Assembly: GCA_041661425.1 (NCBI GenBank) | Contig: JBAZUI010000001.1 | Coordinates: 8,507-72,506 of the forward strand | Source: Patescibacteria group bacterium | Lineage (GTDB): Bacteria > Patescibacteriota > Patescibacteriia > UBA9934 | Length of the DNA: 64,000 bases | Reading direction: 5' to 3' | In this document: piece after piece, positions 69 to 60,414 of the stretch | Layout: each line of letters starts with the position of its first letter | Numbering within the stretch: position 1 is the stretch's first letter | Position numbers and translations under genes: made by a program | Notes under the pieces: model-generated | What the model was told of the DNA's origin: nothing | Databases searched by the model: none | Seen by the model: only the letters and a program-made list of their open reading frames with translations

Positions 69-785
69 ATGAATGATCGCCAAGCCACTATTCTTTGCGC
101 CATCATCGATGCTTACGTGAAAACCGCAGAGCCTGTCTCTTCGAATTTTTTGATCGATCATTATGATCTTCCGGTTTCTTCCGCCACGGTGCGAAATGAA
201 ATGATGGCCCTCGAAGATGCCGGATACGTACGCCAACCGCATACCTCGGCCGGACGCGTGCCAACCGAAGAAGGGTATCGATTCTATCTTCAGCATCGTA
301 AGCAGGGAAAGGTTATTGGAAAAGAGGCGTCGTTTGAACAAACATTTGAACATCATGCGAAAAATGAAAAAGATTTGATGCGTGAAATTGCAAAAGTCCT
401 CGTGGAACTTTCCGGTGAAACCGCTGTCACCGCGCTCGAGAGTGATTGGCACCACACAGCCGGCTTGCAAAAGCTCTTCGACAAACCGGATTTCGCGGAC
501 GTGGAAAACATGCGTTCACTCTCGGAAGTCGTGGATCGCATGGATGAAGTGATGGCCGATGTGTTCTCCGATGTTTCGGAAGAGATGAACGTCTGGATCG
601 GCCGTGAGAATCCCTTTGGAAATCAGATGGCCACGATCATGGTTCGCTATCGTTTGCCCAATGGGATGCTTGGAATGATGGGATTAGTTGGGCCGCTTCG
701 TATGGATTATGAACGGAATATGAATTTGCTTGAAGAAGCAAGAAAAATAATTGAAGACGATTATGGAAAAACAAAAAAAGAATAA
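69..785 (+). CDS. hrcA: heat-inducible transcription repressor HrcA
   Basis: N-terminal winged-helix region (ILCAIIDAYVKTAEPVSS) typical of HrcA; lies at the head of the grpE-dnaK-dnaJ operon. ATG at 69 is preferred over the GTG at 54. Confidence 0.8.
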   Translation: MNDRQATILCAIIDAYVKTAEPVSSNFLIDHYDLPVSSATVRNEMMALEDAGYVRQPHTSAGRVPTEEGYRFYLQHRKQGKVIGKEASFEQTFEHHAKNEKDLMREIAKVLVELSGETAVTALESDWHHTAGLQKLFDKPDFADVENMRSLSEVVDRMDEVMADVFSDVSEEMNVWIGRENPFGNQMATIMVRYRLPNGMLGMMGLVGPLRMDYERNMNLLEEARKIIEDDYGKTKKE

Positions 786-1260
786 AAAGCCACCATTGCC
801 CGACCTTCAGGCACAATGCGATGAATATTTGGCCGGGTGGAAGCGCGCGCTCGCGGATTACGAGAATCTCAAAAAAGATCTCTCGGCACGTGAAGTCGAG
901 CGTCATCGCTATTTCGTCATTGACCTTATTCAAAGTTTTTTTCCTATTATCGATAATTTCGATGTCGCGGTTCGACACATTCCCAAGCTGGATGATCTCC
1001 CGGAAGAGAAAAAAAAGATGATTGAGAATTGGCTTCAAGGGGTCGTCTACATCCAAAAACAATTTGTCGATAGTCTTGCCTCGCTCGGGATTGAACGGAT
1101 GAAAACAATGGGTGAGATTTTTGACCCGACTCATCACGACGCCGCAGGAACAAAAACCGATCCATCAAAAAAACCACAAGAAATTTTGGAGGAAGTGTAC
1201 AGCGGATGGATGCTGGGAGATCAGGTCATCCGTCCGGCAAAAGTCATTATTAACGAATAA
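763..1260 (+). CDS. grpE: nucleotide exchange factor GrpE
   Basis: GrpE-like sequence ([17 protein letters not shown]...GEIFDP) located between hrcA and dnaK. The track ORF starts at a TTG at 751; ATG at 763 is preferred. Confidence 0.85.
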
Positions 1261-1262
1261 AT

Positions 1263-3158
1263 ATGTCAAAAATACTTGGAATCGATTTAGGAACAACCAA
1301 TTCCGCCATGGCCGTGATTGAAGGCGGTCAACCACGCATTATCGAAAATAAAGAGGGCATGCGCACCACCCCATCCATTATCGCGATCGCCAAAAACGGC
1401 GAGCGATTGGTGGGCATGCCGGCAAAACGCCAGTCCATCACCAATCCGGTTGATACGCTCTATTCCATCAAGCGTTTAATTGGTCGTCGTTTTAGTGATC
1501 CGGAAGTCACGCGCGATCGTGAACAAATGCCATTCAAGATCGTCCAGCGCGGTGAAGGAATCGGGATCTTGATGGGCGGAAAGGGATATACGCCACAAGA
1601 AATCGGCGCCATGGTTCTTGGAAAAATGAAAGCCGATGCCGAAGAGCGCTTGGGCGAACCCGTGACCGAAGCGGTGATTACGGTTCCTGCCTATTTTGAT
1701 GATGCGCAACGCCAGGCCACAAAGGATGCCGGAGAAATTGCCGGTCTTAAAGTGAGTCGCATCATCAATGAGCCAACCGCGGCGGCTTTGGCTTACGGGT
1801 TTGATAAGAAAACCGGTCAACAAATTCTTGTGTACGATTTGGGTGGCGGAACTTTTGACGTCTCCGTTCTTGATGTGTCGGATAATACCGTGGAGGTTCT
1901 CTCAACAAACGGGGATACGCATCTTGGTGGTGATGATTTTGATAAAGTGATCATTGATTGGATTCTTGGCGAATTCAAAAAATTGGAAGGCGTTGATTTG
2001 CACGGCGATGCGCTCGCCATGCAACGCATTAAAGATGCGGCTGAGCGCGCGAAAATCGAACTCTCCACCGCGCAGGAAACTGAAATTAATCAACCGTTCA
2101 TTACCTCGGGCGCAGAAGGGCCAAAGCACTTGGTGATGAAAATCACTCGATCAAAGCTTGAGGAATTGGTGATGCCCCTTATTGAGAAGACGATGGGTCC
2201 GGTTGCGAAAGCACTCGAGGATGCCAAAATGAGCAAGGGCGACATCGAAGAAATTGTGATGGTCGGCGGAATGACTCGCATGCCACTGGTCCAAAAGAAA
2301 GTTGAAGATTTTTTTGGCAAGAAACCGAATGTTTCGGTGAATCCCGATGAAGTGGTTGCGGTTGGCGCGGCCATCCAAGGTGGAGTCCTCAAGGGCGATG
2401 TCAAAGATGTTTTGCTTCTTGATGTCACGCCTCTTTCGCTTGGAATCGAAACACTCGGTGGAGTGATGACCAAGCTCATTGAACGAAATACCACAGTGCC
2501 AACATCCAAGAGTCAGGTCTTTTCGACAGCATCAGATAGCCAGCCATCGGTTGAAATCAAGGTCTATCAAGGTGAACGTCCTCTGGTGAATGACAATAAA
2601 TTGCTTGGCGCTTTCTCGCTTATGGGAATCCCACCAGCGCCACGTGGTATCCCTCAAATTGAGGTTTCCTTCGACATCGACGCGAATGGAATTCTTAATG
2701 TAAAAGCAAAGGATAAAGGAACAAATAAAGAGCAACAGATTACCATTACCGCAAGCTCTGGCTTATCAAAAGATGATATTGAGCGCATGAAACATGATGC
2801 AGAATCACATGCCGATGAGGACAAAAAGAAACAGGAAATGATTGAGGCGCGCAATATGGCGGATACGCTTATCTACACCACAGAGAAGATGCTTGTGGAT
2901 TATAAGAGTAAAATGAATGAAGCGGATGTTAAAGAAATTACGGAAAAAGTGGAGGCGCTCAAAAAGGTGAAAGATGGGGAAGATTTAGCCGTCATCAAAA
3001 CAGCTTCCGAGGAACTTTCCAAAGTCGCACAAAAGATCGGGACAGCCATGTATCAACAGCAAGCCCCAGCTGGAGCTCCAGCGGGTGAGAAGCCGGCTGA
3101 ACCGGGGACAAAAGATGCGGACTTTGAGGAAGTCAAAAAAGATGACGAGAAAAAATAA
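1263..3158 (+). CDS. dnaK: molecular chaperone DnaK (Hsp70)
   Basis: Canonical Hsp70 motifs: [37 protein letters not shown]. Confidence 0.97.
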
Positions 3159-3159
3159 T

Positions 3160-3330
3160 ATGAAACTCCGAAACGTTCTCAAGCTCTTTTTGCGAGGTGG
3201 ATTGGGTTTTGTCTCAACCATCCTCACCATTCTTTCAATTCCGCAGGTTCGCGATTTCCTCTGGAATAAAGTGCTCAATAAGAGCAAAGAAAAAATCGTC
3301 GATGCCAAGGCAAAGGTGGTGAAAGAATAA
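3160..3330 (+). CDS. hypothetical small membrane protein (56 aa)
   Basis: ATG immediately after the dnaK stop, followed by one predicted TM helix. Only an ORF call, no homology evidence. Confidence 0.35.
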   Translation: MKLRNVLKLFLRGGLGFVSTILTILSIPQVRDFLWNKVLNKSKEKIVDAKAKVVKE

Positions 3331-3349
3331 TGGATGGGGAGCTCTTCGC

Positions 3350-3381
3350 CCCCTCCTTAAATAAGGAGGGGTGAGGGGTGG
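3350..3381. repeat. palindromic repeat, copy 1: CCCCTCCTTAAATAAGGAGGGG + TGAGGGGTGG
   Basis: 22-nt perfect palindrome with a G-rich tail. A near-identical copy occurs at 10478-10508. Confidence 0.7.
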
Positions 3382-3391
3382 TCTTGAATTC

Positions 3392-3763
3392 ATGAATATG
3401 AATTATCGATTGTTCAATCTGAGAGATCAGAAGAAATTTCGTTCTAAGCTTAGAAATGATTCAACGGACGCCGAACAGAAGTTGTGGAGTTTTCTCCGTC
3501 ATTCTCAAATCGATAAGTTAAAATTCCGTCGACAACAAGGAATTGGACCGTACATTGTGGATTTCTATTGTCCAAAGATCAAACTCGTCGTCGAGATTGA
3601 TGGCGATTCGCATTTTGATGATCAGGGCATCGCCTACGATAAACAACGAACAGTATTTCTGCAACAGTTTGGTATTCGGGTAGTCAGATTTACGAATGTT
3701 GATATTCAAGAAACCATTGAAGGTGTGATCGAAGAAATAAGAAAAAAAATAACGTTTCGCTAG
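3392..3763 (+). CDS. DUF559 (Vsr-like endonuclease domain) protein
   Basis: Motifs KLWSFLR...FRRQQGIGPYIVDFYCP...VEIDGDSH are characteristic of the DUF559 / restriction-endonuclease-like fold. The gene is inserted between dnaK and dnaJ. Confidence 0.75.
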   Translation: MNMNYRLFNLRDQKKFRSKLRNDSTDAEQKLWSFLRHSQIDKLKFRRQQGIGPYIVDFYCPKIKLVVEIDGDSHFDDQGIAYDKQRTVFLQQFGIRVVRFTNVDIQETIEGVIEEIRKKITFR

Positions 3764-3806
3764 AACCCCCTCAAACTCCCCCTTTGAAAGGGGGAGGCTA
3801 AAAAAT

Positions 3807-4847
3807 ATGGGCAAAGATTATTATAAAATTCTCGGAATCGAAAAAGGCGCTTCCAAAGAAGAAGTGAAGCGCGCTTTTCGAGCTCTCGCCCATACGCATC
3901 ACCCCGATAAAGGAGGGGACGAAGCAAAATTCAAGGAAATCAACGAGGCCTATCAAGTGCTGGGTGATGAGGAGAAGCGCAAGCAATACGATCAATTTGG
4001 CACCACATACGATCAGCCGGGCGGTGGCGGTTTCGGGAATTTCAATGATTTCTATTCGAACATGAATTTTGAGGATCTTGGGGATATTTTCGGGAGCATG
4101 TTTGGCGGAGGGCGAAGTGCACGTGCGCGTGGCGATGATATTGCGGTTGACGTCCGACTCACTTTCAAGGAATCGATTTTTGGCGTTGAAAAAGAATTAA
4201 CGCTCACCAAAAATCAATCCTGTGATCGTTGTGGTGGCACCGGAGGAGAGCCGGGAACAAAAATGAATACCTGTGATACCTGCAAAGGGAGCGGAATGCA
4301 AATCACGGCGCAACGCACGATGTTTGGGACGATTCAATCGCGCACAACCTGTCGAACCTGTGGGGGGAGCGGTGAGATTCCAAAAGAAAAATGTTCCACC
4401 TGTAAGGGCACAGGTCTTGAGTATAAACGAACGACCTTGCGCGTTGAGATTCCACCGGGCGTTGAAGATGGCAATCGGATGCGTGTGCGCGGGCAAGGCG
4501 AAAGTCTTGGGGCCTCCGGAGCGCCTGGCGATCTTTATGTTTCATTGCATGTTGAAACTGATCCGCGATTTGAGCGCCAAGGAGAGCACCTGTTTTCTAT
4601 AAAACGTATTGGATTTTCGCAAGCCGCGCTTGGTGATGAAGTGGTGGTTGAAACCGTGGATGGGAGTGTGAAGGTGAAGATTCCGGCTGGTACGCAGCAT
4701 GGCGATAAACTCCGCTTGCGTCAAAAAGGAGTGCCAACGGGTCGGGGTCGCGGAGATCATTTGGTGATTGTGCATGTGATGACGCCAAAGAAATTAAGTC
4801 GAAGTGAACGAAAAATATTAGAAGAACTGAATTTGCGGGAAGAGTAG
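3807..4847 (+). CDS. dnaJ: molecular chaperone DnaJ
   Basis: J-domain with HPD (YYKILGIEKGAS...HPDK), a G/F-rich region and four CxxCxGxG zinc-finger repeats. Confidence 0.95.
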   Translation: MGKDYYKILGIEKGASKEEVKRAFRALAHTHHPDKGGDEAKFKEINEAYQVLGDEEKRKQYDQFGTTYDQPGGGGFGNFNDFYSNMNFEDLGDIFGSMFGGGRSARARGDDIAVDVRLTFKESIFGVEKELTLTKNQSCDRCGGTGGEPGTKMNTCDTCKGSGMQITAQRTMFGTIQSRTTCRTCGGSGEIPKEKCSTCKGTGLEYKRTTLRVEIPPGVEDGNRMRVRGQGESLGASGAPGDLYVSLHVETDPRFERQGEHLFSIKRIGFSQAALGDEVVVETVDGSVKVKIPAGTQHGDKLRLRQKGVPTGRGRGDHLVIVHVMTPKKLSRSERKILEELNLREE

Positions 4848-4853
4848 ATAGGC

Positions 4854-5387
4854 ATGGGAAATAGGCTTTGGTATAATAGACTCATGTCTTTTTCGTTTGA
4901 GAATCTTCTGAGTGCTTTCCCGTTCGATTCGTTCGACTTGTGGATGGCGGCTGGCGTTCTTGGGCTCGTTTTTATTTTTTTATTTACGATTGGACGGGAT
5001 TTTTCCGTGACCCTCATGCTTTCCGTTTATTTTTCACTGGTCAGCATGACCATGATTCCATTTTTGCGCGATCTTGATATTGATATCAGCTTTGAGGATT
5101 ATTGGGTGAAGTTGGTCATTTTTGGAGTTTTGATCGCGGTCTTTTTTTGGCTTCAAGTTCGCAATGAGTTTTTTGAGCCCTATACGGTTCCCACCGGCGG
5201 AGAGGTGATTGTTTTTGTTTTGGTCATTTCCGGCATGATTCTCTATGCCGCGGGAACCATGATCCCAGAACTTCTGCTTTTGGACATCTCTCCACTTATG
5301 CGAATGCTTTTTCTCGATGAACCGGCGGCGAATGTGTGGTTTACTTTGCCGATTCTTACCATGCTTTTTTTGCGCGGAAGGACTTAG
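4854..5387 (+). CDS. hypothetical polytopic membrane protein
   Basis: Several hydrophobic segments. An internal TGgTATAAT at 4869-4877 suggests the true start may be the ATG at 4884. Confidence 0.45.
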   Translation: MGNRLWYNRLMSFSFENLLSAFPFDSFDLWMAAGVLGLVFIFLFTIGRDFSVTLMLSVYFSLVSMTMIPFLRDLDIDISFEDYWVKLVIFGVLIAVFFWLQVRNEFFEPYTVPTGGEVIVFVLVISGMILYAAGTMIPELLLLDISPLMRMLFLDEPAANVWFTLPILTMLFLRGRT

Positions 5388-5415
5388 TTCGTAGGGCTTG
5401 GTCTGCGTATGGGCT

Positions 5416-5439
5416 TGGCATACCAAGCCCATGCGATGA
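5416..5439. terminator. perfect hairpin ATGGGCTTGGCATACCAAGCCCAT
   Basis: 10-bp stem read directly. Lies downstream of 4854..5387 with a partial direct repeat (gggcttgg) just upstream. Confidence 0.4.
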
Positions 5440-5459
5440 GAGCATGCGATGCCAAAAAG

Positions 5460-5473
5460 TGTCCGATCGGACC
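5460..5473. promoter_or_regulatory. operator-like palindrome TGTCCGATCGGACC upstream of the cassette-B promoter
   Basis: Near-perfect 14-nt palindrome sharing the core GTCCGATCGGAC with the palindromes at 13029-13042 and 13140-13153. Confidence 0.5.
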
Positions 5474-5488
5474 TTTCTTGTCATCAAA

Positions 5489-5517
5489 TTGACATTCTAG
5501 GCCTTCCAGCTTACAGT
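5489..5517 (+). promoter_or_regulatory. sigma70-like promoter TTGACA-17-TACAGT
   Basis: Canonical -35 with a 17-nt spacer and a TAnnnT -10, followed by AGGAGG 9 nt before the ATG at 5542. Confidence 0.5.
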
Positions 5518-5541
5518 TTTAGTGTCTCAAAGGAGGAAGCC

Positions 5542-5934
5542 ATGGCACTCAGTGACATTTCCACGGTTTTTGTCATGAGTCCCCGTCGGTTCTACCGATG
5601 GTCGCTGCTTAGCTCCGTCGTCGTCTACGCACTCGGCGCCATTGCAGGAGCGGGAGGATTCGCTTTCGCAATTGGAGTTCACGTCCTGGTCGGTTTGTGC
5701 GGGGCAGGCGCTGAACACGACCTTGACATGAAGTACGTTATGGAGTTTGACTGGAAGGTCATGACCGGAATCCAGCGATTCAAGTACTTTTTTCTTCTCC
5801 TTGCCAAGAACATTACTCAGGGGGTCTTCGCCCCGTTCGTTTTGTCGTGGTACATCTACGAACAGTGGCGAGTCCTTCGGGACAGCCTTCGGAAACGTTC
5901 GCATCTCGTCGTCACCCGGATCGACATCAAATAG
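5542..5934 (+). CDS. GC-rich hypothetical small membrane protein (130 aa)
   Basis: Third codon positions are overwhelmingly G/C, unlike the flanking genes. Strong SD, two or three predicted TM segments, no recognisable family. Start chosen at MALSD because of the RBS. Confidence 0.55.
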   Translation: MALSDISTVFVMSPRRFYRWSLLSSVVVYALGAIAGAGGFAFAIGVHVLVGLCGAGAEHDLDMKYVMEFDWKVMTGIQRFKYFFLLLAKNITQGVFAPFVLSWYIYEQWRVLRDSLRKRSHLVVTRIDIK

Positions 5935-5946
5935 TCCGGGTTTTTG
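5914..5946 (+). terminator. rho-independent terminator (ACCCGGA...TCCGGGT + TTTTT)
   Basis: 7-bp stem spanning the stop codon, followed by a T-run. Confidence 0.5.
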
Positions 5947-5996
5947 GTTTCTATCGCGTTTTTTATGCGTTGACGGTATACTATTTCACGAAATCT

Positions 5997-7376
5997 ATGG
6001 ATATCAAACTCTACAATACGCTTCATCGAACAAAAGAGATTTTTCACCCTATCCATGAGGGGAAGGTTGGAATTTATTGTTGCGGGCCAACTGTTTATCA
6101 GCGTGCTTCCATTGGAAATTTCCGCTCCTATGTTTTTGCGGATCTTCTTCGCAGAACATTAATTGCCAATGGATATGAGGTGAAACACATTGTGAATATC
6201 ACCGATGTGGGGCACCTGACGGATGATGCTTCTGCCGGGGAGGACAAGATGGAAAAAGCCGCCACGAATGCAGAAAAATCCGCATGGGATATTGCCGCGG
6301 AGTATACGGCTCTTTTTGAAGCGGATGCCGCGCATCTCAATATTCTTCCGCCAACCAAGATGCCAAAAGCAACGGATCACATTGGTGAACAAATAAAATT
6401 TATTGAGGATATCGAAAAAGCCGGATACGCGTATCAAATTTCAGATGGTCTGTATTTTGATACGGGCAAGCTTGAAAATTACGGCGAACTTTCACCACAG
6501 AAGTCAGAGGAGAAGGAAGAAGGCGCGCGGGTTGCAGTGAATGAGGAAAAAAGAAATCCAACGGATTTTGCTTTGTGGAAATTTTCACGCCAAGGAGAGC
6601 ATCGTCAAATGGAGTGGCCATCGCCGTGGGGAGTTGGGTTCCCTGGTTGGCATATTGAATGCTCGGCCATGAGTGAAAAATATCTTGATCTTCCGTTTGA
6701 TATTCACACGGGTGGAATCGATCATATTGCGGTTCATCACACGAATGAAATCGCACAAAGTCTGGCCGCACGCGGAGTGAACCCGGCAACATATTGGATG
6801 CACAATGCGTTTTTGCTCATCGATGGCGGGAAGATGTCCAAGTCGCTTGGGAATACCTATTCACTCGATGATTTGAAAGAGCGTGGAATTGAGCCGCTGG
6901 CGCTTCGTTATTTCTTTTTAGGGGCTCATTATCGCGTCCAAGAGAATTTCACTTGGGAAGCGATTGAAGCGGCACAGCACGCCCTTGATCATTTGCGTGA
7001 ACTAGCACAAAACCTCGATGTGCCAAGCAAGATTCACGAACCATCATTCGAAAAATTCACAACATTCATGAATGACGATCTCAATACTCCCGGAGCATTG
7101 GCCTTTGTTTGGGATTTTTTGCGTGAGGCTTCAATTCCCTCAGGTGAGAAAGCGGCGACCCTTTTAGAAATCGATAAATTTTTAGGACTCAATTTGGATC
7201 ACCCGGGTGCACAGCCACTTGCTATTCCAAGAGAGATTGAGGATTTGGTGCGAGCGCGTGAACGCGTGCGTGAGAAGCGGGATTTTGAAGCATCGGATCG
7301 TTTGCGAAATGAAATCGAAGAAAAAGGATACACCATCAAGGATTCAACAACAGGGCCAATCGTCGGACAAAAATAA
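5997..7376 (+). CDS. cysS: cysteine--tRNA ligase
   Basis: Motifs IYCCGPTVY, HIGN-like region, KMSKSLGN, and the CysRS anticodon-binding C-terminus. The ORF in the track is extended upstream across cassette B; MDIKLY is the plausible start. Confidence 0.93.
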   Translation: MDIKLYNTLHRTKEIFHPIHEGKVGIYCCGPTVYQRASIGNFRSYVFADLLRRTLIANGYEVKHIVNITDVGHLTDDASAGEDKMEKAATNAEKSAWDIAAEYTALFEADAAHLNILPPTKMPKATDHIGEQIKFIEDIEKAGYAYQISDGLYFDTGKLENYGELSPQKSEEKEEGARVAVNEEKRNPTDFALWKFSRQGEHRQMEWPSPWGVGFPGWHIECSAMSEKYLDLPFDIHTGGIDHIAVHHTNEIAQSLAARGVNPATYWMHNAFLLIDGGKMSKSLGNTYSLDDLKERGIEPLALRYFFLGAHYRVQENFTWEAIEAAQHALDHLRELAQNLDVPSKIHEPSFEKFTTFMNDDLNTPGALAFVWDFLREASIPSGEKAATLLEIDKFLGLNLDHPGAQPLAIPREIEDLVRARERVREKRDFEASDRLRNEIEEKGYTIKDSTTGPIVGQK

Positions 7377-10530: not shown

Positions 10531-10564
10531 AAAGCCCTCGGCCGAGACGACGGCTGAGGGCGAG
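10531..10564 (-). terminator. 34-bp hairpin repeat (copy 1) acting as terminator of minus-strand gene C1
   Basis: AAAGCCCTCGGCCGAGACGACGGCTGAGGGCGAG. On the minus strand it forms a hairpin followed by TTTTGATCGCC. An identical copy is at 11163-11196. Confidence 0.65.
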
Positions 10565-10586
10565 CAGTCTTGCGAAGCAAAGAAAA

Positions 10587-11045
10587 TCAGGGCGCAGCCG
10601 GCATCGAGTCGATGACAGCTGTGGGAGCTGGTGGCTCCGTCGAGAGGTCGATCTGCTCGAACCCTCCACGTGGATCGCTCGGAGGCATGGGGACTGATGG
10701 GATCCCGCCGTCCACGATGATCTGGTTGATCCTCTTGGCGTTTTCACACATCATGGGATCGCCCCCGGGCGCGCACGCCTCGACGACGTCCTGCCTCGAG
10801 CGCTCGTGCGTTCGAGCCTCGATCTTGTCGAGCTCCTCGGACTCGATCTTGTCGGGATGGGCGAGGAGCCATTCAATCCTCGCTTCGTCTTCCTCCTCCG
10901 TTGGAGTTCGCGATCCCTCGACGGCCGTGCTCATGGTTTGGAAGAGGAGGTATGACGAAACGCCTCCCACACAGATTCCTCCGGTTGCGAGACAGAGGAG
11001 GAGGATGATCACGATCAGCAGAACACTGTGTTTTCTCTTTTCCAT
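10587..11045 (-). CDS. GC-rich hypothetical membrane-anchored or secreted protein (153 aa)
   Basis: Start at MEKRK (ATG complement at 11043-11045), preceded by AGGAG. N-terminal basic stretch plus a TM helix (LLIVIILLLCLATGG), then a hydrophilic Pro/Glu-rich domain. G/C-rich codons. Confidence 0.5.
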   Translation of the reverse strand: MEKRKHSVLLIVIILLLCLATGGICVGGVSSYLLFQTMSTAVEGSRTPTEEEDEARIEWLLAHPDKIESEELDKIEARTHERSRQDVVEACAPGGDPMMCENAKRINQIIVDGGIPSVPMPPSDPRGGFEQIDLSTEPPAPTAVIDSMPAAP

Positions 11046-11091
11046 TGATGACGACTCCTGACCTGGGTTAGCTACCAGAGATGTACGTATG

Positions 11092-11120
11092 ATGTTAGAC
11101 AAGAAAAACAAATATGTCAA
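11092..11120 (-). promoter_or_regulatory. minus-strand promoter TTGACA-17-TAACAT for gene C1
   Basis: Read on the reverse complement: TTGACA at 11115-11120, TAACAT at 11092-11097, RBS AGGAG at 11055-11059. Confidence 0.5.
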
Positions 11121-11162: not shown

Positions 11163-11196
11163 AAAGCCCTCGGCCGAGACGACGGCTGAGGGCGAG
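11163..11196 (-). terminator. 34-bp hairpin repeat (copy 2), terminator of minus-strand gene C2
   Basis: Identical to 10531-10564. On the minus strand it is followed by TTTCGTGTTTCT. Confidence 0.65.
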
Positions 11197-11209
11197 AAGA
11201 CGAAGTAGA

Positions 11210-14260: not shown

Positions 14261-14306
14261 ATGAATTGATATTCATGGTTTTTTTGTGGTTCCCGGACAG
14301 GGATTC
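14261..14306. repeat. direct repeat duplicating the 3' end of tRNA-Gln plus flank (gatattcatggtt...tggttcccggacagggattc)
   Basis: A 20-nt exact match to 14461-14480, with matching flank gatatt(t)catggtt. This is an att-like duplication of the tRNA 3' end. Confidence 0.6.
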
Positions 14307-14460
14307 CTCCTCATCCGTCGTTCGCGTGTTCCCTCGGAACAGGCTCACTCCTCCTTCAGAGCCGGGGTCGTCCAAAACGTAAAGTAGTTTACGTTTTGTC
14401 CGTACCCTTCGAATCCCTGTCGTAAATAAAATATCGCCAGCCGAAGCTGTCGATATTTCA

Positions 14461-14534
14461 TGGTTCCCGGACAGGGATTCGAACCCCGATTCCCAGGACC
14501 AAAACCTGGTGTCCTGCCCTTAGACGATCCGGGA
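14461..14534 (-). tRNA. tRNA-Gln (anticodon TTG)
   Basis: Reverse complement folds by hand into a cloverleaf: acceptor TCCCGGA/TCCGGGA, D-stem GTCT/GGAC, anticodon stem CCAGG/CCTGG with loop TTTTGGT, T-arm CGGGG-TTCGAAT-CCCTG, CCA encoded; 74 nt. Confidence 0.8.
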
Positions 14535-39373: not shown

Positions 39374-41164
39374 ATGATCAGCGCTGATGAATTGAGAAAA
39401 AAGTACCTTGATTTTTTTGTTTCAAAGGGACATATCCAAATTCCTTCCGCTTCCTTGATTCCCGAGAATGATCCTTCGGTGTTGTTCACGACCGCTGGGA
39501 TGCATCCGTTGGTTCCGTATCTTTTAGGTGAGCCTCATCCCGCTGGCAAGCGTTTGGTAAATGTGCAGAAGTGTGTGCGCACCGGTGATATTGATGAAGT
39601 GGGTGATGCGACGCACTTGACCTTTTTTGAAATGCTCGGGAATTGGTCGCTTGGGGATTATTTCAAGGATGATTCGATTGCCTGGAGTTTTGAGTTTTTA
39701 ACATCCGCAGATTGGCTTGCGATCCCTGTCAATAAACTCGCGGTCAGTGTTTTTGCTGGCGATGACGATGCGCCATTCGATGAAGAGTCCATGAAAAAAT
39801 GGATGGAGCTCGGTATCCTCGAATCTCGCATTGCAAAGCTTGGGAAAGATGATAATTGGTGGCCGGCAGGCGGCAAACATCCAGGGCCTCAAGGGCCGGA
39901 TACGGAGATTTTTTATTGGACCGGAACAGAGGTGGCGCCGGAATCGTTTGACCCGAAAAATAAATTTTGGGTCGAAATTTGGAACAACGTCTTCATGCAG
40001 TTTTTAAAAGGAAAAGATGGTTCCCCTAAATCGCTCGATCAAAAGAATGTGGATACCGGGATGGGCCTTGAGCGCACACTCGCGGTTTTGAATGACGTCG
40101 CAACGGTATTTGAAACTGATCTTTTTATTTCGATTATTTCCGCCATTGAATCGGCAACCGGAGCGAAATACGGGAGCGATGCGGCTGTGACTCGATCAAT
40201 GAGGATCATTGCCGATCATGTTCGTTCAGCGGTCATGATGATCGCGGACGGCGTTGCGCCTTCGAATAAGGATCAGGGGTACATCCTTCGACGTCTGATT
40301 CGTCGGGCGATTTGTGAATCAACAAAGCTCGTAAAAGAGGGGATTGATCTTACAAAAATCGCTCATCCCGTGATTGCGATGTTTGAAGGTGTCTATCCAA
40401 TTCCCACGGCCGGGAATGTCATCAAGGCCATAAAAGATGAACAAGAAAAGTTTTCAAAGACCCTTCACAAGGGGCTGGGACAATTTGAAAAATTTTTCAA
40501 ACAAGGCGCCATTGGTGGAAAAGAAGCATTTGATTTGTATGCAACCTATGGATTTCCACTGGAGCTTACTGAGGACCTCGTGAAAGAACGCGGAGCAACC
40601 ATCGATCGCGAGGCGTTCGAACACGAGTTTGCGCATCACCAGGAGCTCTCCTCGCAAGGGTCGGAAAAGAAATTTAAAGGCGGTCTGGCAGATGCGAGCG
40701 AGGAAACAACACGATTGCATACAGCCACGCATTTGCTTCATCAGGCTCTCCGGATGGTGCTCGGGGATGGGGTGGCGCAAAAAGGATCGAATATTACGAC
40801 TGAACGTTTGCGTTTTGATTTTTCTCATGGCGAAAAGATGACACCGGAACAGATTACCGAGGTCGAACGTATCGTGAACGAACAAATCGAAAAAGCCATG
40901 CCGGTTATTTGCGAGACGATGTCGGTCGAGGAGGCGGAAAAATCCGGGGCCATTGGACTCTTCAAAGAAAAATATAAAACCGTTGGCGACCAGGTAAAGG
41001 TCTACAACGTCGGAAATTCTTCGACAAGCTCAGAGCCTCCTTTCAGTCGGGAAATCTGCGGCGGTCCTCATGCCTCGAATACGAAGGAGCTTGGACACTT
41101 TAAGATTTTGAAGGAAGAGGCGTCGTCCGCCGGGATTCGACGGATTAAGGCTATTTTAGAATAA
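39374..41164 (+). CDS. alaS: alanine--tRNA ligase (short form, 596 aa)
   Basis: AlaRS catalytic core motifs (FTTAGM, KCVRTGDID, FFEMLGNWS) and the HxxxH editing/second domain. C-terminal portions typical of full-length AlaRS are absent. Confidence 0.85.
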   Translation: MISADELRKKYLDFFVSKGHIQIPSASLIPENDPSVLFTTAGMHPLVPYLLGEPHPAGKRLVNVQKCVRTGDIDEVGDATHLTFFEMLGNWSLGDYFKDDSIAWSFEFLTSADWLAIPVNKLAVSVFAGDDDAPFDEESMKKWMELGILESRIAKLGKDDNWWPAGGKHPGPQGPDTEIFYWTGTEVAPESFDPKNKFWVEIWNNVFMQFLKGKDGSPKSLDQKNVDTGMGLERTLAVLNDVATVFETDLFISIISAIESATGAKYGSDAAVTRSMRIIADHVRSAVMMIADGVAPSNKDQGYILRRLIRRAICESTKLVKEGIDLTKIAHPVIAMFEGVYPIPTAGNVIKAIKDEQEKFSKTLHKGLGQFEKFFKQGAIGGKEAFDLYATYGFPLELTEDLVKERGATIDREAFEHEFAHHQELSSQGSEKKFKGGLADASEETTRLHTATHLLHQALRMVLGDGVAQKGSNITTERLRFDFSHGEKMTPEQITEVERIVNEQIEKAMPVICETMSVEEAEKSGAIGLFKEKYKTVGDQVKVYNVGNSSTSSEPPFSREICGGPHASNTKELGHFKILKEEASSAGIRRIKAILE

Positions 41165-41165
41165 T

Positions 41166-41188
41166 GGGGTCAGGTCGGGAATCGGGAA
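41166..41188. repeat. 23-bp direct repeat GGGGTCAGGTCGGGAATCGGGAA (left copy) flanking the HigBA cassette
   Basis: Exact 23-nt match to 41833-41855; lies directly after the alaS stop codon. Confidence 0.75.
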
Positions 41189-41213
41189 TTTTTTTCGGCT
41201 GAACTAGCTTTTT

Positions 41214-41531
41214 ATGAAAATTAAATTCTTTAGTCGAGAGATCGAGGAGTTTATTATAAGACTGGAAAAGCCAACGATCGCAAAGGTCTTACGGAGCTTT
41301 GATCTACTCGAAAAATTTGGTAATCAAATCGGCATGCCTCATAGTAAGGCATTGAGTGATGGGCTGTTCGAATTGAGAATTCGCGGAGTTCAGGAAGTGA
41401 GATTCTTATACTTTTTTAAAAAGACAGAAATGATTGTGATTTTGAGCGGTTTTTTAAAAAAGACAAATTCGATGCCGGTTCGGGAAATGCGGTTGGCAAA
41501 GCAACGGAAAAAAGAGCTTGACGCGATATAA
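41214..41531 (+). CDS. higB: HigB/RelE-superfamily toxin (Gp49-like)
   Basis: LFELRIRGVQEVRFLYFF...IVILSGFLKKT matches the Gp49/HigB-like toxin family. Followed by an XRE antitoxin. Confidence 0.75.
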   Translation: MKIKFFSREIEEFIIRLEKPTIAKVLRSFDLLEKFGNQIGMPHSKALSDGLFELRIRGVQEVRFLYFFKKTEMIVILSGFLKKTNSMPVREMRLAKQRKKELDAI

Positions 41532-41545
41532 CATATACGTTATAT

Positions 41546-41827
41546 TTGATGTGTATGAAAGATTATCAAATTTTGAAAAAAGAATTATTGTCCGATACCG
41601 AAATTCGAAAGGCTTACGAGGCATTGGGACCGGAATATTCGATTATTGAGAAGTTAATCGAGAAACGATTAAAACAGGGGATGTCACAAAAGCAATTAGC
41701 AAAAATTCTCGGCACAAAACAGTCTGCCATTTCTCGCTTTGAATCCGGTTCTTACAATCCCACCATTTCATTTCTTTATAAAATCGCCGATGCGCTCGAT
41801 GTAAAATTGACGATGACGGTTAAATAA
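41546..41827 (+). CDS. higA: HTH XRE-family antitoxin (HigA-like)
   Basis: HTH motif GMSQKQLAKILGTKQSAISRFESG. Confidence 0.8.
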   Translation: MMCMKDYQILKKELLSDTEIRKAYEALGPEYSIIEKLIEKRLKQGMSQKQLAKILGTKQSAISRFESGSYNPTISFLYKIADALDVKLTMTVK

Positions 41828-41832
41828 AAAAC

Positions 41833-41855
41833 GGGGTCAGGTCGGGAATCGGGAA
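41833..41855. repeat. 23-bp direct repeat GGGGTCAGGTCGGGAATCGGGAA (right copy)
   Basis: Identical to 41166-41188. Confidence 0.75.
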
Positions 41856-41868
41856 CTAACCATGAACT

Positions 41869-42501
41869 ATGAACGTAAATATTGAAAAATTTCAGGAGGA
41901 CAGAGAGAAACAAAAAAGCCCGTTTTTTGAATTAGCGCGTAAGGCGTTTCTTGATGCTGGAGCTGAAGAGTATCTATCGCTTCAGGAGATGTATCGTCGA
42001 TGCCCGAGCGATCTTATTGTGCGTCGGGAAAAACCAGAACAAATACTGTCGGTTATTCAGAATGAAAAATCTTTTGAGTTGAGGCCAGATAATAAACTTG
42101 CAAAGTACGCAAATGCTGTTCTGTGGAGTCCTTCCGATGGTCCTCGAGGATTAGAGGATGCTTTTTTGGAGGGAATTTCGCATAAAGATGGAGTTGTTAC
42201 TGTTTTTGGATTTGAACCTCAAGAAGATGCGACGATTGATTATGTTCCGGATGCGACGGGTGGGGTTCTGAATGTTGATCGTTCGCTCGTGAGAAGCGTC
42301 TCAGCGACAGTGACACCCGAATCTGTGCGATTTATTGTTCTTCGAATCCCGATTCAACAGTATTCAGAAAAGGAAATGACCGATCTGGAGCTTGAACGTC
42401 TGGATCGTTACGAACGTTCAATATCGGCAAAACCAAATCCACAGTATATTTGTCGAGGGTATTTTTTCCCAGGAAAAGAAGAGAAGGAAATGGCTGCATA
42501 A
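41869..42501 (+). CDS. hypothetical protein (210 aa)
   Basis: ORF with a plausible RBS context; no recognisable family. Confidence 0.4.
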   Translation: MNVNIEKFQEDREKQKSPFFELARKAFLDAGAEEYLSLQEMYRRCPSDLIVRREKPEQILSVIQNEKSFELRPDNKLAKYANAVLWSPSDGPRGLEDAFLEGISHKDGVVTVFGFEPQEDATIDYVPDATGGVLNVDRSLVRSVSATVTPESVRFIVLRIPIQQYSEKEMTDLELERLDRYERSISAKPNPQYICRGYFFPGKEEKEMAA

Positions 42502-42512
42502 CAAAAGATCCC

Positions 42513-42797
42513 TCAGCACGTACGCCTTGGGACCTGTGATTCGCACTCGACGCATCTAATGGCGCCGGGCACGATCACGAGACGCTTGATGGGAATCTCT
42601 TCGCCACAATCGGCGCAGATTCCATATGAGCCTTCCTTGATTCTCGCGAGAGCCGCGAGAATATAGGGCACTGCGACCCTCTGTTTGAGGGCGAGGTGAA
42701 CCGGAGGACGGGCGCTGTGGGGCCATTCCTCCAGATACCTCCGAAGTTTTTCTCGGAGGATTTCTTTCTGCGATGCAAGAAAATCGCTCGAAAGCAT
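42513..42797 (-). CDS. DksA/TraR-family C4-type zinc-finger protein (94 aa)
   Basis: Start at MLSSDF with GGAGG immediately upstream. C-terminal CADCGEEIP...CVEC four-Cys zinc finger typical of DksA/TraR. The upstream 80 aa of the track ORF is antisense to the transposase fragment and lacks support. Confidence 0.7.
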   Translation of the reverse strand: MLSSDFLASQKEILREKLRRYLEEWPHSARPPVHLALKQRVAVPYILAALARIKEGSYGICADCGEEIPIKRLVIVPGAIRCVECESQVPRRTC

Positions 42798-42968
42798 GGT
42801 TCCTCCAGGGAATATGGACCAAAAATAATAGCACTTTTTTGAGGAAAAGTCAATCATAGTATTGACAAAACCAATAAGATATTTGAGTTGGATGAATCTA
42901 TTATGATGCCAAATCATATCCATGGCATCCTTCAAATTATTGAATCCAAGATCAAAATCGATTCTGTA

Positions 42969-42991
42969 CGGGCGGGTCTGCGACCCGCCCG
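42969..42991. repeat. REP-like hairpin CGGGCGGGTC-TGC-GACCCGCCCG
   Basis: 10-bp perfect stem within the transposase fragment. Confidence 0.7.
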
Positions 42992-43022
42992 CTCGGGGCT
43001 CATCGAATGCGCCGATAATGAT

Positions 43023-43045
43023 CGGGCAGGTCACAGACCTGCCCG
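43023..43045. repeat. REP-like hairpin CGGGCAGGTC-ACA-GACCTGCCCG
   Basis: 10-bp perfect stem, a near copy of the hairpin at 10441-10461. Confidence 0.7.
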
Positions 43046-43250
43046 TACGGGAAAATATGCATTATCCGAGATTATTCGGGGATTCAAATCATATGCATCC
43101 AGAAAAATCAATATTCTATTTGATTCTCCCGGCGCTCCATTATGGCACCGTAATTATTATGATCACATCATCCGTTCTCCACAGGATCTCGACCGAATTC
43201 GCGCCTATATCCGTGATAATCCGAATCAGCAGTAAGGGCGGACAAGATTC

Positions 43251-60145: not shown

Positions 60146-60164
60146 TATTTTTGGTGGACCTTAA
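60146..60164. repeat. direct repeat duplicating the 3' end of tRNA-Ala (tggtggaccttaagggatt)
   Basis: 19-20 nt exact match to 60339-60357; a structured GC-rich ~175-bp segment lies between the copies. Confidence 0.6.
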
Positions 60165-60338
60165 GGGATTTGGCTTCGGCTCTCGTGTCGCCGTCGCTCC
60201 ACTCGGCCTAGCCACCGCCTCGCCATTCCGCCTGCTGGCGGAATAGGGCTCCGGCGTTCGAATCCCCCCGCAAGCCAAATTATTGGCTTGCTCGAAATAC
60301 CAACCCACAAGACTCCAAATTTTTGAAACGCTGTGGGT

Positions 60339-60414
60339 TGGTGGACCTTAAGGGATTCGAACCCTTGACCTCTTCCATGCCATGGAAGCGCTCTAGCCAA
60401 CTGAGCTAAAGGCC
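60339..60414 (-). tRNA. tRNA-Ala (anticodon GGC)
   Basis: Reverse complement GGGCCTT-TA-GCTC-AGTTGGCTA-GAGC-G-CTTCC-ATGGCAT-GGAAG-AGGTC-AAGGG-TTCGAAT-CCCTT-AAGGTCC-A-CCA folds into a canonical cloverleaf. Confidence 0.8.

Follow-up and report, generated by a model that had tools for sequence, protein, structure and literature searches.

In the available text of Di Nocera, De Gregorio & Rocco 2013 (PMC3733652), RAYT-like genes that lie between terminal inverted repeats (TIRs) are named "TIRtrons" and their enzymes TIRYTs. The same text reports that TIRtron ends share the outer motif GGGGWSAS and that "moderately abundant families of TIRs" occur as singles, dimers or clusters (PMC3733652). Most TIRYTs fall into TnpA_Y1 subclass 2.1 and carry a C-terminal HTH, as far as the available text of Quentin et al. 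2018 goes (PMC6006769). TIRtrons are rarely named in the literature, and their function is not known.

Elements of the IS200/IS605 type and PATEs, which are non-autonomous derivatives of them, combine an HUH/Y1 enzyme with same-strand ends, leave no target duplication and can possibly be mobilised in trans. The pdif modules of Acinetobacter plasmids carry toxin-antitoxin genes, including those of HigBA type, or resistance genes between XerC/D sites that are also found elsewhere. These pdif sites are 28-bp, dyad-symmetric Xer sites, are usually inverted around the modules and reside on plasmids.

The window, by which we mean the whole 64-kb stretch of DNA that was analysed out of a 118-kb source contig, contains two exact copies of GGGGTCAGGTCGGGAATCGGGAA (hereafter the 23-mer), at 41166-41188 and 41833-41855, both on the + strand and with a start-to-start spacing of 667 bp. 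No further copy was detected in the 64 kb at up to three or up to five mismatches, and 100 dinucleotide-preserving shuffles yielded 0 copies. The alaS stop codon TAA occupies 41162-41164 and is followed by a single T and then by the left copy, and only two open reading frames, 41214-41531 (Gp49/HigB) and 41555-41827 (XRE/HigA), are located between the copies. The original prediction, made from the letters of the window, had described perfect 23-bp direct repeats that bracket nothing but a HigB/HigA pair after alaS, the left one beginning 2 nt past the alaS stop. We confirmed its coordinates, strand and spacing, with the stop ending at 41164 and the repeat starting at 41166. The identity of the two copies is confined to the 23-mer, which is preceded by AATAAT on the left and AAAAAC on the right and followed by TTTTTT and CTAACC, respectively. 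Since the identity stops there and the flanks resemble each other in composition alone, we rejected the 23-mer as the edge of a longer repeat. The locus comprises the following features.

39374..41164, + strand: alaS, 596 aa, the conserved left neighbour (tRNA-synt_2c, E=9e-130)
41166..41188, + strand: left 23-mer copy, with a T7 run directly 3', the typical context of the family
41214..41531, + strand: higB-like toxin gene, 105 aa, Gp49/RelE-ParE superfamily (Pfam PF05973, E=8e-20)
41526..41545, no strand: near-perfect 20-nt palindrome ATATAACATATACGTTATAT that covers the stop of higB and the start of higA
41555..41827, + strand: higA-like antitoxin gene, XRE-type HTH (HTH_3, PF01381, E=3e-18)
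41833..41855, + strand: right 23-mer copy, in the same orientation as the left, with an A-run 5' (typical) and CTAACC 3'
41869..42501, + strand: 210-aa ORF with no family match, outside the repeat-bounded unit and inside the variable alaS-infA gap
42513..43034, - strand: DksA/TraR-type zinc-finger ORF, likewise in the variable gap; the longest ORF probably reaches too far 5'
42888..43235, + strand: 5'-truncated short Y1/RAYT-like gene, of a subclass that differs from the 23-mer-linked transposase

The toxin gene comes first and is separated from the antitoxin gene by 23 nt, and a RelE/Gp49 toxin is thus followed by an XRE-HTH antitoxin, as is typical of type II HigBA. Homologues of the higB-like gene carry the name type II TA RelE/ParE family toxin. 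The higA-like product has 90 aa counted from the ATG, and its ORF opens at a TTG at 41546. A promoter-like site (41518-41546) overlaps the palindrome at the junction of the two genes. In homologous loci this palindrome is perfect; it is likely a HigA operator combined with an internal promoter. The form ATATAACATATA(C/T)GTTATAT is conserved in this HigBA lineage, at 41526-41545 in the window, at ~4311-4334 in L033, and in L034/L035. Judging from the family, the pair presumably acts in the usual way, with a ribosome-dependent mRNA-cleaving toxin that is neutralised by an autorepressing XRE antitoxin.

We compared the region between alaS and infA with the two nearest relatives examined, neither of which holds a toxin-antitoxin pair there. 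In the closest AlaS relative (L031), the order is murJ-alaS-129 aa-short Y1 (192 aa)-infA-rpsM, while in L032 alaS is directly followed by infA. The window reads alaS-[repeat-HigBA-repeat]-210 aa-DksA/TraR(-)-truncated short Y1-infA. In these sequences the alaS-infA gap appears as a variable spot. In addition, the repeat-HigBA-repeat unit has a GC content of 36-39%, against 47% for the window. The low GC, the absence from the nearest relatives and the variability of the gap together suggest that the HigBA pair was probably acquired. The discrete insertion proposed in the original prediction therefore survives as far as an acquired HigBA module is concerned, but not in the sense that the insertion produced the repeats. 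Because the closest AlaS is merely 75% identical, no near-isogenic empty site could be recovered from the data. Exact-protein look-ups with AlaS and the 210-aa ORF returned no match, and the 690-bp unit had no match in plasmids or phages.

Compared with its full-length orthologue at the same position in L031, the short Y1 gene at 42888-43235 lacks ~71 N-terminal residues. We rejected it as the cognate transposase of the 23-mer, since it belongs to a different short subclass, has its orthologue at the same position in L031 and is not bracketed by 23-mers. Its coding sequence contains two GC-rich hairpins (~42968-42993 and ~43024-43046), which encode RAGLRPAR and RAGHRPAR.

The window holds further duplications at a distance from this locus. 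A 37-nt hairpin-forming direct repeat, 97% identical, is found at 10531-10567 and 11163-11199 and encloses a 177-aa minus-strand ORF (10587-11120) with no family match, a second repeat-bracketed gene in the window. The 3' end of tRNA-Ala(GGC) is duplicated 187 bp away (60151-60170 and 60338-60357, 20 nt exact), and that of tRNA-Gln(TTG) 174 bp away (14282-14306 and 14456-14480, 25 nt at 92%). Both tRNA 3'-end duplications resemble att-type scars left by elements that integrated or were excised.

Beyond the window, the 23-mer proved to be a dispersed repeat. An exact-match scan of species-representative genomes returned 22 copies on 19 stretches from 8 other species-level genomes. Five of these bear the label Ca. 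Uhrbacteria or Patescibacteria, a sixth is labelled "bacterium", and the other two are "Gammaproteobacteria" MAGs. Metagenome contigs yielded 13 exact copies in 10 contigs, and viral contigs gave 0 exact matches. From the size of the genome collection and 4^23, only ~0.02 occurrences would be expected by chance. Individual draft genomes, which are metagenome-assembled and may be incomplete, contain nine (LJ_bin-3226), four (NC_groundwater_1383) and four (H41-bin287_1) exact copies. The copies are found in either orientation and in settings unrelated to one another. The repeat is thus not specific to this cassette, which speaks against the target-site-like duplications of the original prediction.

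After normalising the orientation, we found the flanks of the copies to be unrelated apart from composition, with an A-rich left side, and T occupied +1 in 29 and +2 in 27 of the 32 distinct copies. The working unit is thus ~25-26 nt (the 23-mer plus TT), usually placed between an A-run and a T-run. The right copy of the window is among just 3 of the 32 that have no T at +1. We also considered whether the 23-mer sits within a palindromic target with complementary flanks and rejected this, since the mean complementary run was 3.78 nt versus 3.50 nt after permutation (P ~0.07), the longer run being due to the A-run/T-run composition.

Some copies are grouped. A direct pair, 236 bp apart, occurs in L002/L018/L005, and inverted pairs occur in L008/L025 (AAA spacer), L010/L027 and L016; at no other locus found does a direct pair enclose a discrete gene cassette. 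Partial tandem heads (GGGGTCAGGTCG, GGGGTCGG) stand immediately 5' of full copies at ~1760-1800 in L002/L018 and ~2795-2835 in L016, which suggests slippage or abortive copying at the GGGG end. One exact copy (L003:924-946) resides in a contig of 64% GC, compared with 47-58% GC for the other hosts.

Folding of the 23-mer gave minimum free energies of -0.3 and -0.1 kcal/mol on the two strands (z ~0), indicative of no hairpin, and no terminator was predicted at either window copy. We thus rejected the 23-mer as a terminator or RNA motif. It belongs to no Rfam family, the sole match being a mammalian lncRNA model at E=0.68. Since the copies are both sense and antisense to genes, any function would be exerted at the DNA level and not through RNA. 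The original prediction had named a common intergenic motif, for example a terminator, as the finding that would speak against its cassette; the 23-mer is indeed a common dispersed motif but, forming no hairpin, not a terminator. As a classic REP/REPIN it was rejected as well, having no stem-loop and no GTAG or CGTC tag (it starts with GGGG, ends with GGGAA and has flanks without a conserved tag) and with many of its copies being intragenic. The inverted doublet in L008/L025 folds into a REPIN-like long hairpin of -24.8 kcal/mol.

In other genomes, the same repeat brackets transposase genes. Inverted 23-mers with their GGGG ends outward enclose a 281-aa ORF in L005 (6982+/7867-) and a 282-296-aa ORF in L017 (6949+/7841-). 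The two ORFs match Pfam Y1_Tnp with E=3e-7 and E=1.5e-13, respectively, and score 72 and 92.6 bits (cutoff 80) against NCBIfam NF047646, REP-associated tyrosine transposase. An HUH motif, NHYHL, and a tyrosine motif, RY(I/V)xLNP, are readable in the transposase sequences, which also have a C-terminal extension of ~140 aa. For L017, this C-terminus gave sub-threshold matches to HTH_23 (E=0.034), HTH_28 (0.18) and HTH_SB (0.023), with none for L005 and L033. The L005 and L017 enzymes share the same 23-mer and are just 44% identical to each other. A third homologue, of 291 aa and 43-53% identical, was found in L033 and likewise matches Y1_Tnp and NF047646. Its gene is bracketed by perfect 25-nt inverted repeats, GGGGTCAGGTCGTGTTATGAGCATT (2852/3744), whose first 12 nt are common with the window 23-mer before the two diverge. 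Both repeats open with GGGGTCAG, which fits GGGGWSAS. On these sequence features, the 23-mer is a member of a TIRtron-associated TIR repeat family, known but little studied, here in Patescibacteria. No TIRYT gene was seen within the 64-kb window.

We consider it probable that the two 23-mers of the window are two members of this dispersed, clustering TIR family that lie beside an acquired HigBA pair, and that no duplication arose from HigBA insertion. The family would represent lineage-wide short dispersed repeats of Candidatus Uhrbacteria (Patescibacteria), which would serve as the terminal inverted repeats of a TIRtron with its RAYT-like HUH/Y1 TIRYT gene and would also exist as single copies, pairs and clusters. 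If REP/RAYT systems are a guide, the TIRYT would presumably spread or maintain the 23-mers in trans, acting on single-stranded DNA. The two repeats would occupy two short AT-rich spacers that flank the foreign-composition HigBA pair between alaS and infA, and they are probable transposase recognition sites. Of the recombination-site-flanked cassette in the original prediction, we thus retain flanking sites that are probably recognised by a TIRYT, while nothing was found to show movement by them. Both copies seen in the window flank the same two-gene module. As a rough estimate, random placement among ~70 gene gaps would produce this in ~3% of cases, which counts against this reading and implies some local process. 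The atypical right flank of the right copy, the lack of a TIRYT gene in the window and the lack of another direct pair around a gene cassette weigh against it as well.

Among the alternatives, the one that survives best takes the 23-mer-HigBA-23-mer unit to be a non-autonomous cargo element moved in trans by a TIRYT, or a repeat-carrying circle that recombined with a chromosomal copy. By analogy with IS200/IS605 ends, the two same-strand 23-mers might act as the ends for single-strand excision and insertion. We regard this as unlikely. The direct copies do tightly bracket a module of foreign GC, and the junctions of such an element lend it some appeal. The predicted circle or tandem junction (higA end-AAAAAAC-23-mer-TTTTTTTCGG-higB) would read AAAAAAC-23-mer-TTTTTTT, the typical context of the family, whereas the hypothetical empty site (alaS-23-mer-CTAACCATG) would read AATAAT-23-mer-CTAACC, an atypical one. 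Since a circularised cassette would restore the canonical A-run-repeat-T-run context, we keep mobilisation or capture by repeat recombination as a slender possibility. Against it, however, neither a second cassette in 23-mer-bearing genome or metagenome contigs, phages or plasmids nor an empty site was found, and the repeats around the family's own transposase genes are inverted, not direct.

The homologues of the HigBA pair bear on the same question. HigB homologues 62-68% identical are found in L034-36, L040 and L043, and no 23-mer flanks HigBA in any of these, although the L040 genome has the 23-mer elsewhere; four other HigBA contexts without the 23-mer argue against a mobilised unit. In favour of it, the closest HigBA homologue with long context, 68% identical and located in L033, lies directly after the TIRtron and between different 30-nt direct repeats. 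This adjacency hints that the HigBA lineage is non-randomly associated with TIRtrons. We rejected a general association of the lineage with the 23-mer, which is absent around HigBA in L034-36, L040 and L043, and the TIRtron repeat of L033 has a different tail. The L043 pair is flanked by a 17-nt terminator/promoter-like repeat. In L033, the HigBA pair and the TIRtron are embedded in a small-ORF array (500-6300), whose spacers contain repeated 60-90-nt units made up of a 30-mer (AGTTCGAACATCCT...), a terminator hairpin (AAAACCCTCAGCATTTGCTGGGGTTTTTT) and a promoter-like segment (GTAGTGCAAAACGGTTGACAAAA).

An independent assembly, Logan contig L001 (SRR18595301), corresponds to window 41167-43053 with 99.9% identity. 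It starts at base 2 of the left copy, which could be a graph branch and would then favour a mobilised unit, but the break is equally explained by assembly. The other end of the contig is positioned immediately past the second of the two hairpins of the Y1 fragment. We rejected the start of L001 as evidence for a variant junction, as it is inseparable from an assembly effect and the other end stops at a hairpin; the ends may stem from the assembly graph or from a population that is heterogeneous at the alaS/repeat junction. We likewise give little weight to a more far-reaching version, in which the HigBA unit would be TIRYT-moved cargo and the ~25-nt repeat an actively spreading or homogenised CPR mini-element that is tolerated in frame in essential genes such as atpG.

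Roughly one-third of the distinct 23-mer sites are located in frame inside genuine genes and add ~8 residues, encoding GQVGNRE, GSGRESG or GVRSGIG in sense and IPDSRPDP or FPIPDLTP in antisense. The genes concerned are those for atpG, UDP-glucose dehydrogenase, a GT2 glycosyltransferase (inverted pair), an HhH-GPD glycosylase, HMA-DsbD_2, a PGA_cap/Memo protein, a SAM methyltransferase and a 447-aa protein (loci L011, L022/L026, L010/L027, L012, L015/L019, L006/L021/L023, L004 and L028). Three orthologous pairs, whose members come from different species, have flanks that are ~75-85% identical around a 23-mer that is 100% unchanged. Such perfection amid coding DNA that has diverged by ~15-25%, the presence on both strands relative to genes, which places any function at the DNA level, and the merely 44% identity of transposases that share the repeat would all suit a host regulatory, chromosome-organising or DNA-uptake-type site under selection, with HigBA merely lying between two such sites. 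We find this explanation quite unlikely, given the Y1 transposase genes bracketed in three lineages, the match to the published TIR signature, and the low copy number of 4-9 exact copies per draft genome. Known uptake sequences occur in copy numbers far above 4-9 per genome.

The UDP-glucose dehydrogenase site (codons ~140-155) also speaks against a fixed host site. Here L026 and L022 have a perfect 23-mer, P0244 a degenerate one and L038 a decayed one (4 mismatches and a 21-nt internal insertion), and L037 and L039 (84-91% identical) lack it, as does every outgroup. A neighbour-joining tree places P0242, which has no motif, as sister to P0241, which has one, and gain and loss at this site are therefore patchy. 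This patchiness agrees better with an element that turns over, being mobile or homogenised, than with a host site that is fixed.

The weakest alternative, namely that the 23-mers are a long target-site duplication, as the original prediction had suggested, or attL/attR cores that a site-specific recombinase left on HigBA integration, draws on the perfect 23-bp direct repeats that exactly bound an acquired two-gene module and is highly improbable, because the identical 23-mer stands singly and in inverted pairs at >20 unrelated sites in at least 8 other genomes and hence predates, and is independent of, the HigBA insertion, because it lacks the dyad symmetry that recombinase core sites show, and because the unit contains no transposase or integrase and its neighbours are housekeeping genes, with no recombinase gene from murJ to the ribosomal cluster. 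Usual target duplications range from a few bp to ~14 bp, which 23 bp exceeds. An insertion-specific target-site duplication or att cores are effectively ruled out.

Perfect direct repeats around a toxin-antitoxin pair therefore need no new mobilisation mechanism, and direct repeats should be checked for a genome-wide family before they are named target duplications. The 23-mer appears to offer a clean, low-copy, non-palindromic TIRtron example in streamlined CPR genomes. Its perfection across species, its in-frame copies in housekeeping genes and its series of presence, absence and decay make it a tractable case for short-repeat maintenance by a Y1 transposase.

When set beside known type II HigB/HigA modules, the window pair shares the toxin-first order, the Gp49/RelE-superfamily toxin, the XRE-HTH antitoxin and the junction palindrome; the pair itself is ordinary, and the flanks alone stand out. 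In contrast to the sites of pdif modules, the 23-mer is without dyad symmetry, chromosomal and linked to a Y1 transposase. IS200/IS605 elements and PATEs have subterminal hairpin ends and a cleavage tetranucleotide, whereas the 23-mer has neither a hairpin nor a conserved flanking tetranucleotide. With REP/REPIN-RAYT systems (Nunvar 2010; Bertels & Rainey 2011; Ton-Hoang 2012), the family shares a single-copy Y1 transposase between inverted dispersed repeats, some inverted doublets with a long hairpin (L008/L025), and largely vertical inheritance with unmaintained copies decaying. It differs from them in that the 23-mer lacks the defining palindrome and the GTAG/CGTC tag, is present in low copy number and has many intragenic copies.

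The comparison with TIRtrons is the closest. Relative to those in the available text of PMC3733652 and PMC6006769, the window shows solo copies alone, with no transposase gene; the host belongs to a Patescibacteria (CPR) lineage, unmentioned in that text; about a third of the 23-mer sites are in frame inside genes; and at least 8 species-level genomes share one identical repeat despite transposases that are 44% identical. In common with the TIRtrons described there, the family has a RAYT-like HUH/Y1 gene, which encodes ~280-296 aa with an extended C-terminus and is bracketed by inverted repeats (PMC3733652, PMC6006769), together with the GGGGWSAS outer end and dispersed singles, dimers and clusters (PMC3733652).
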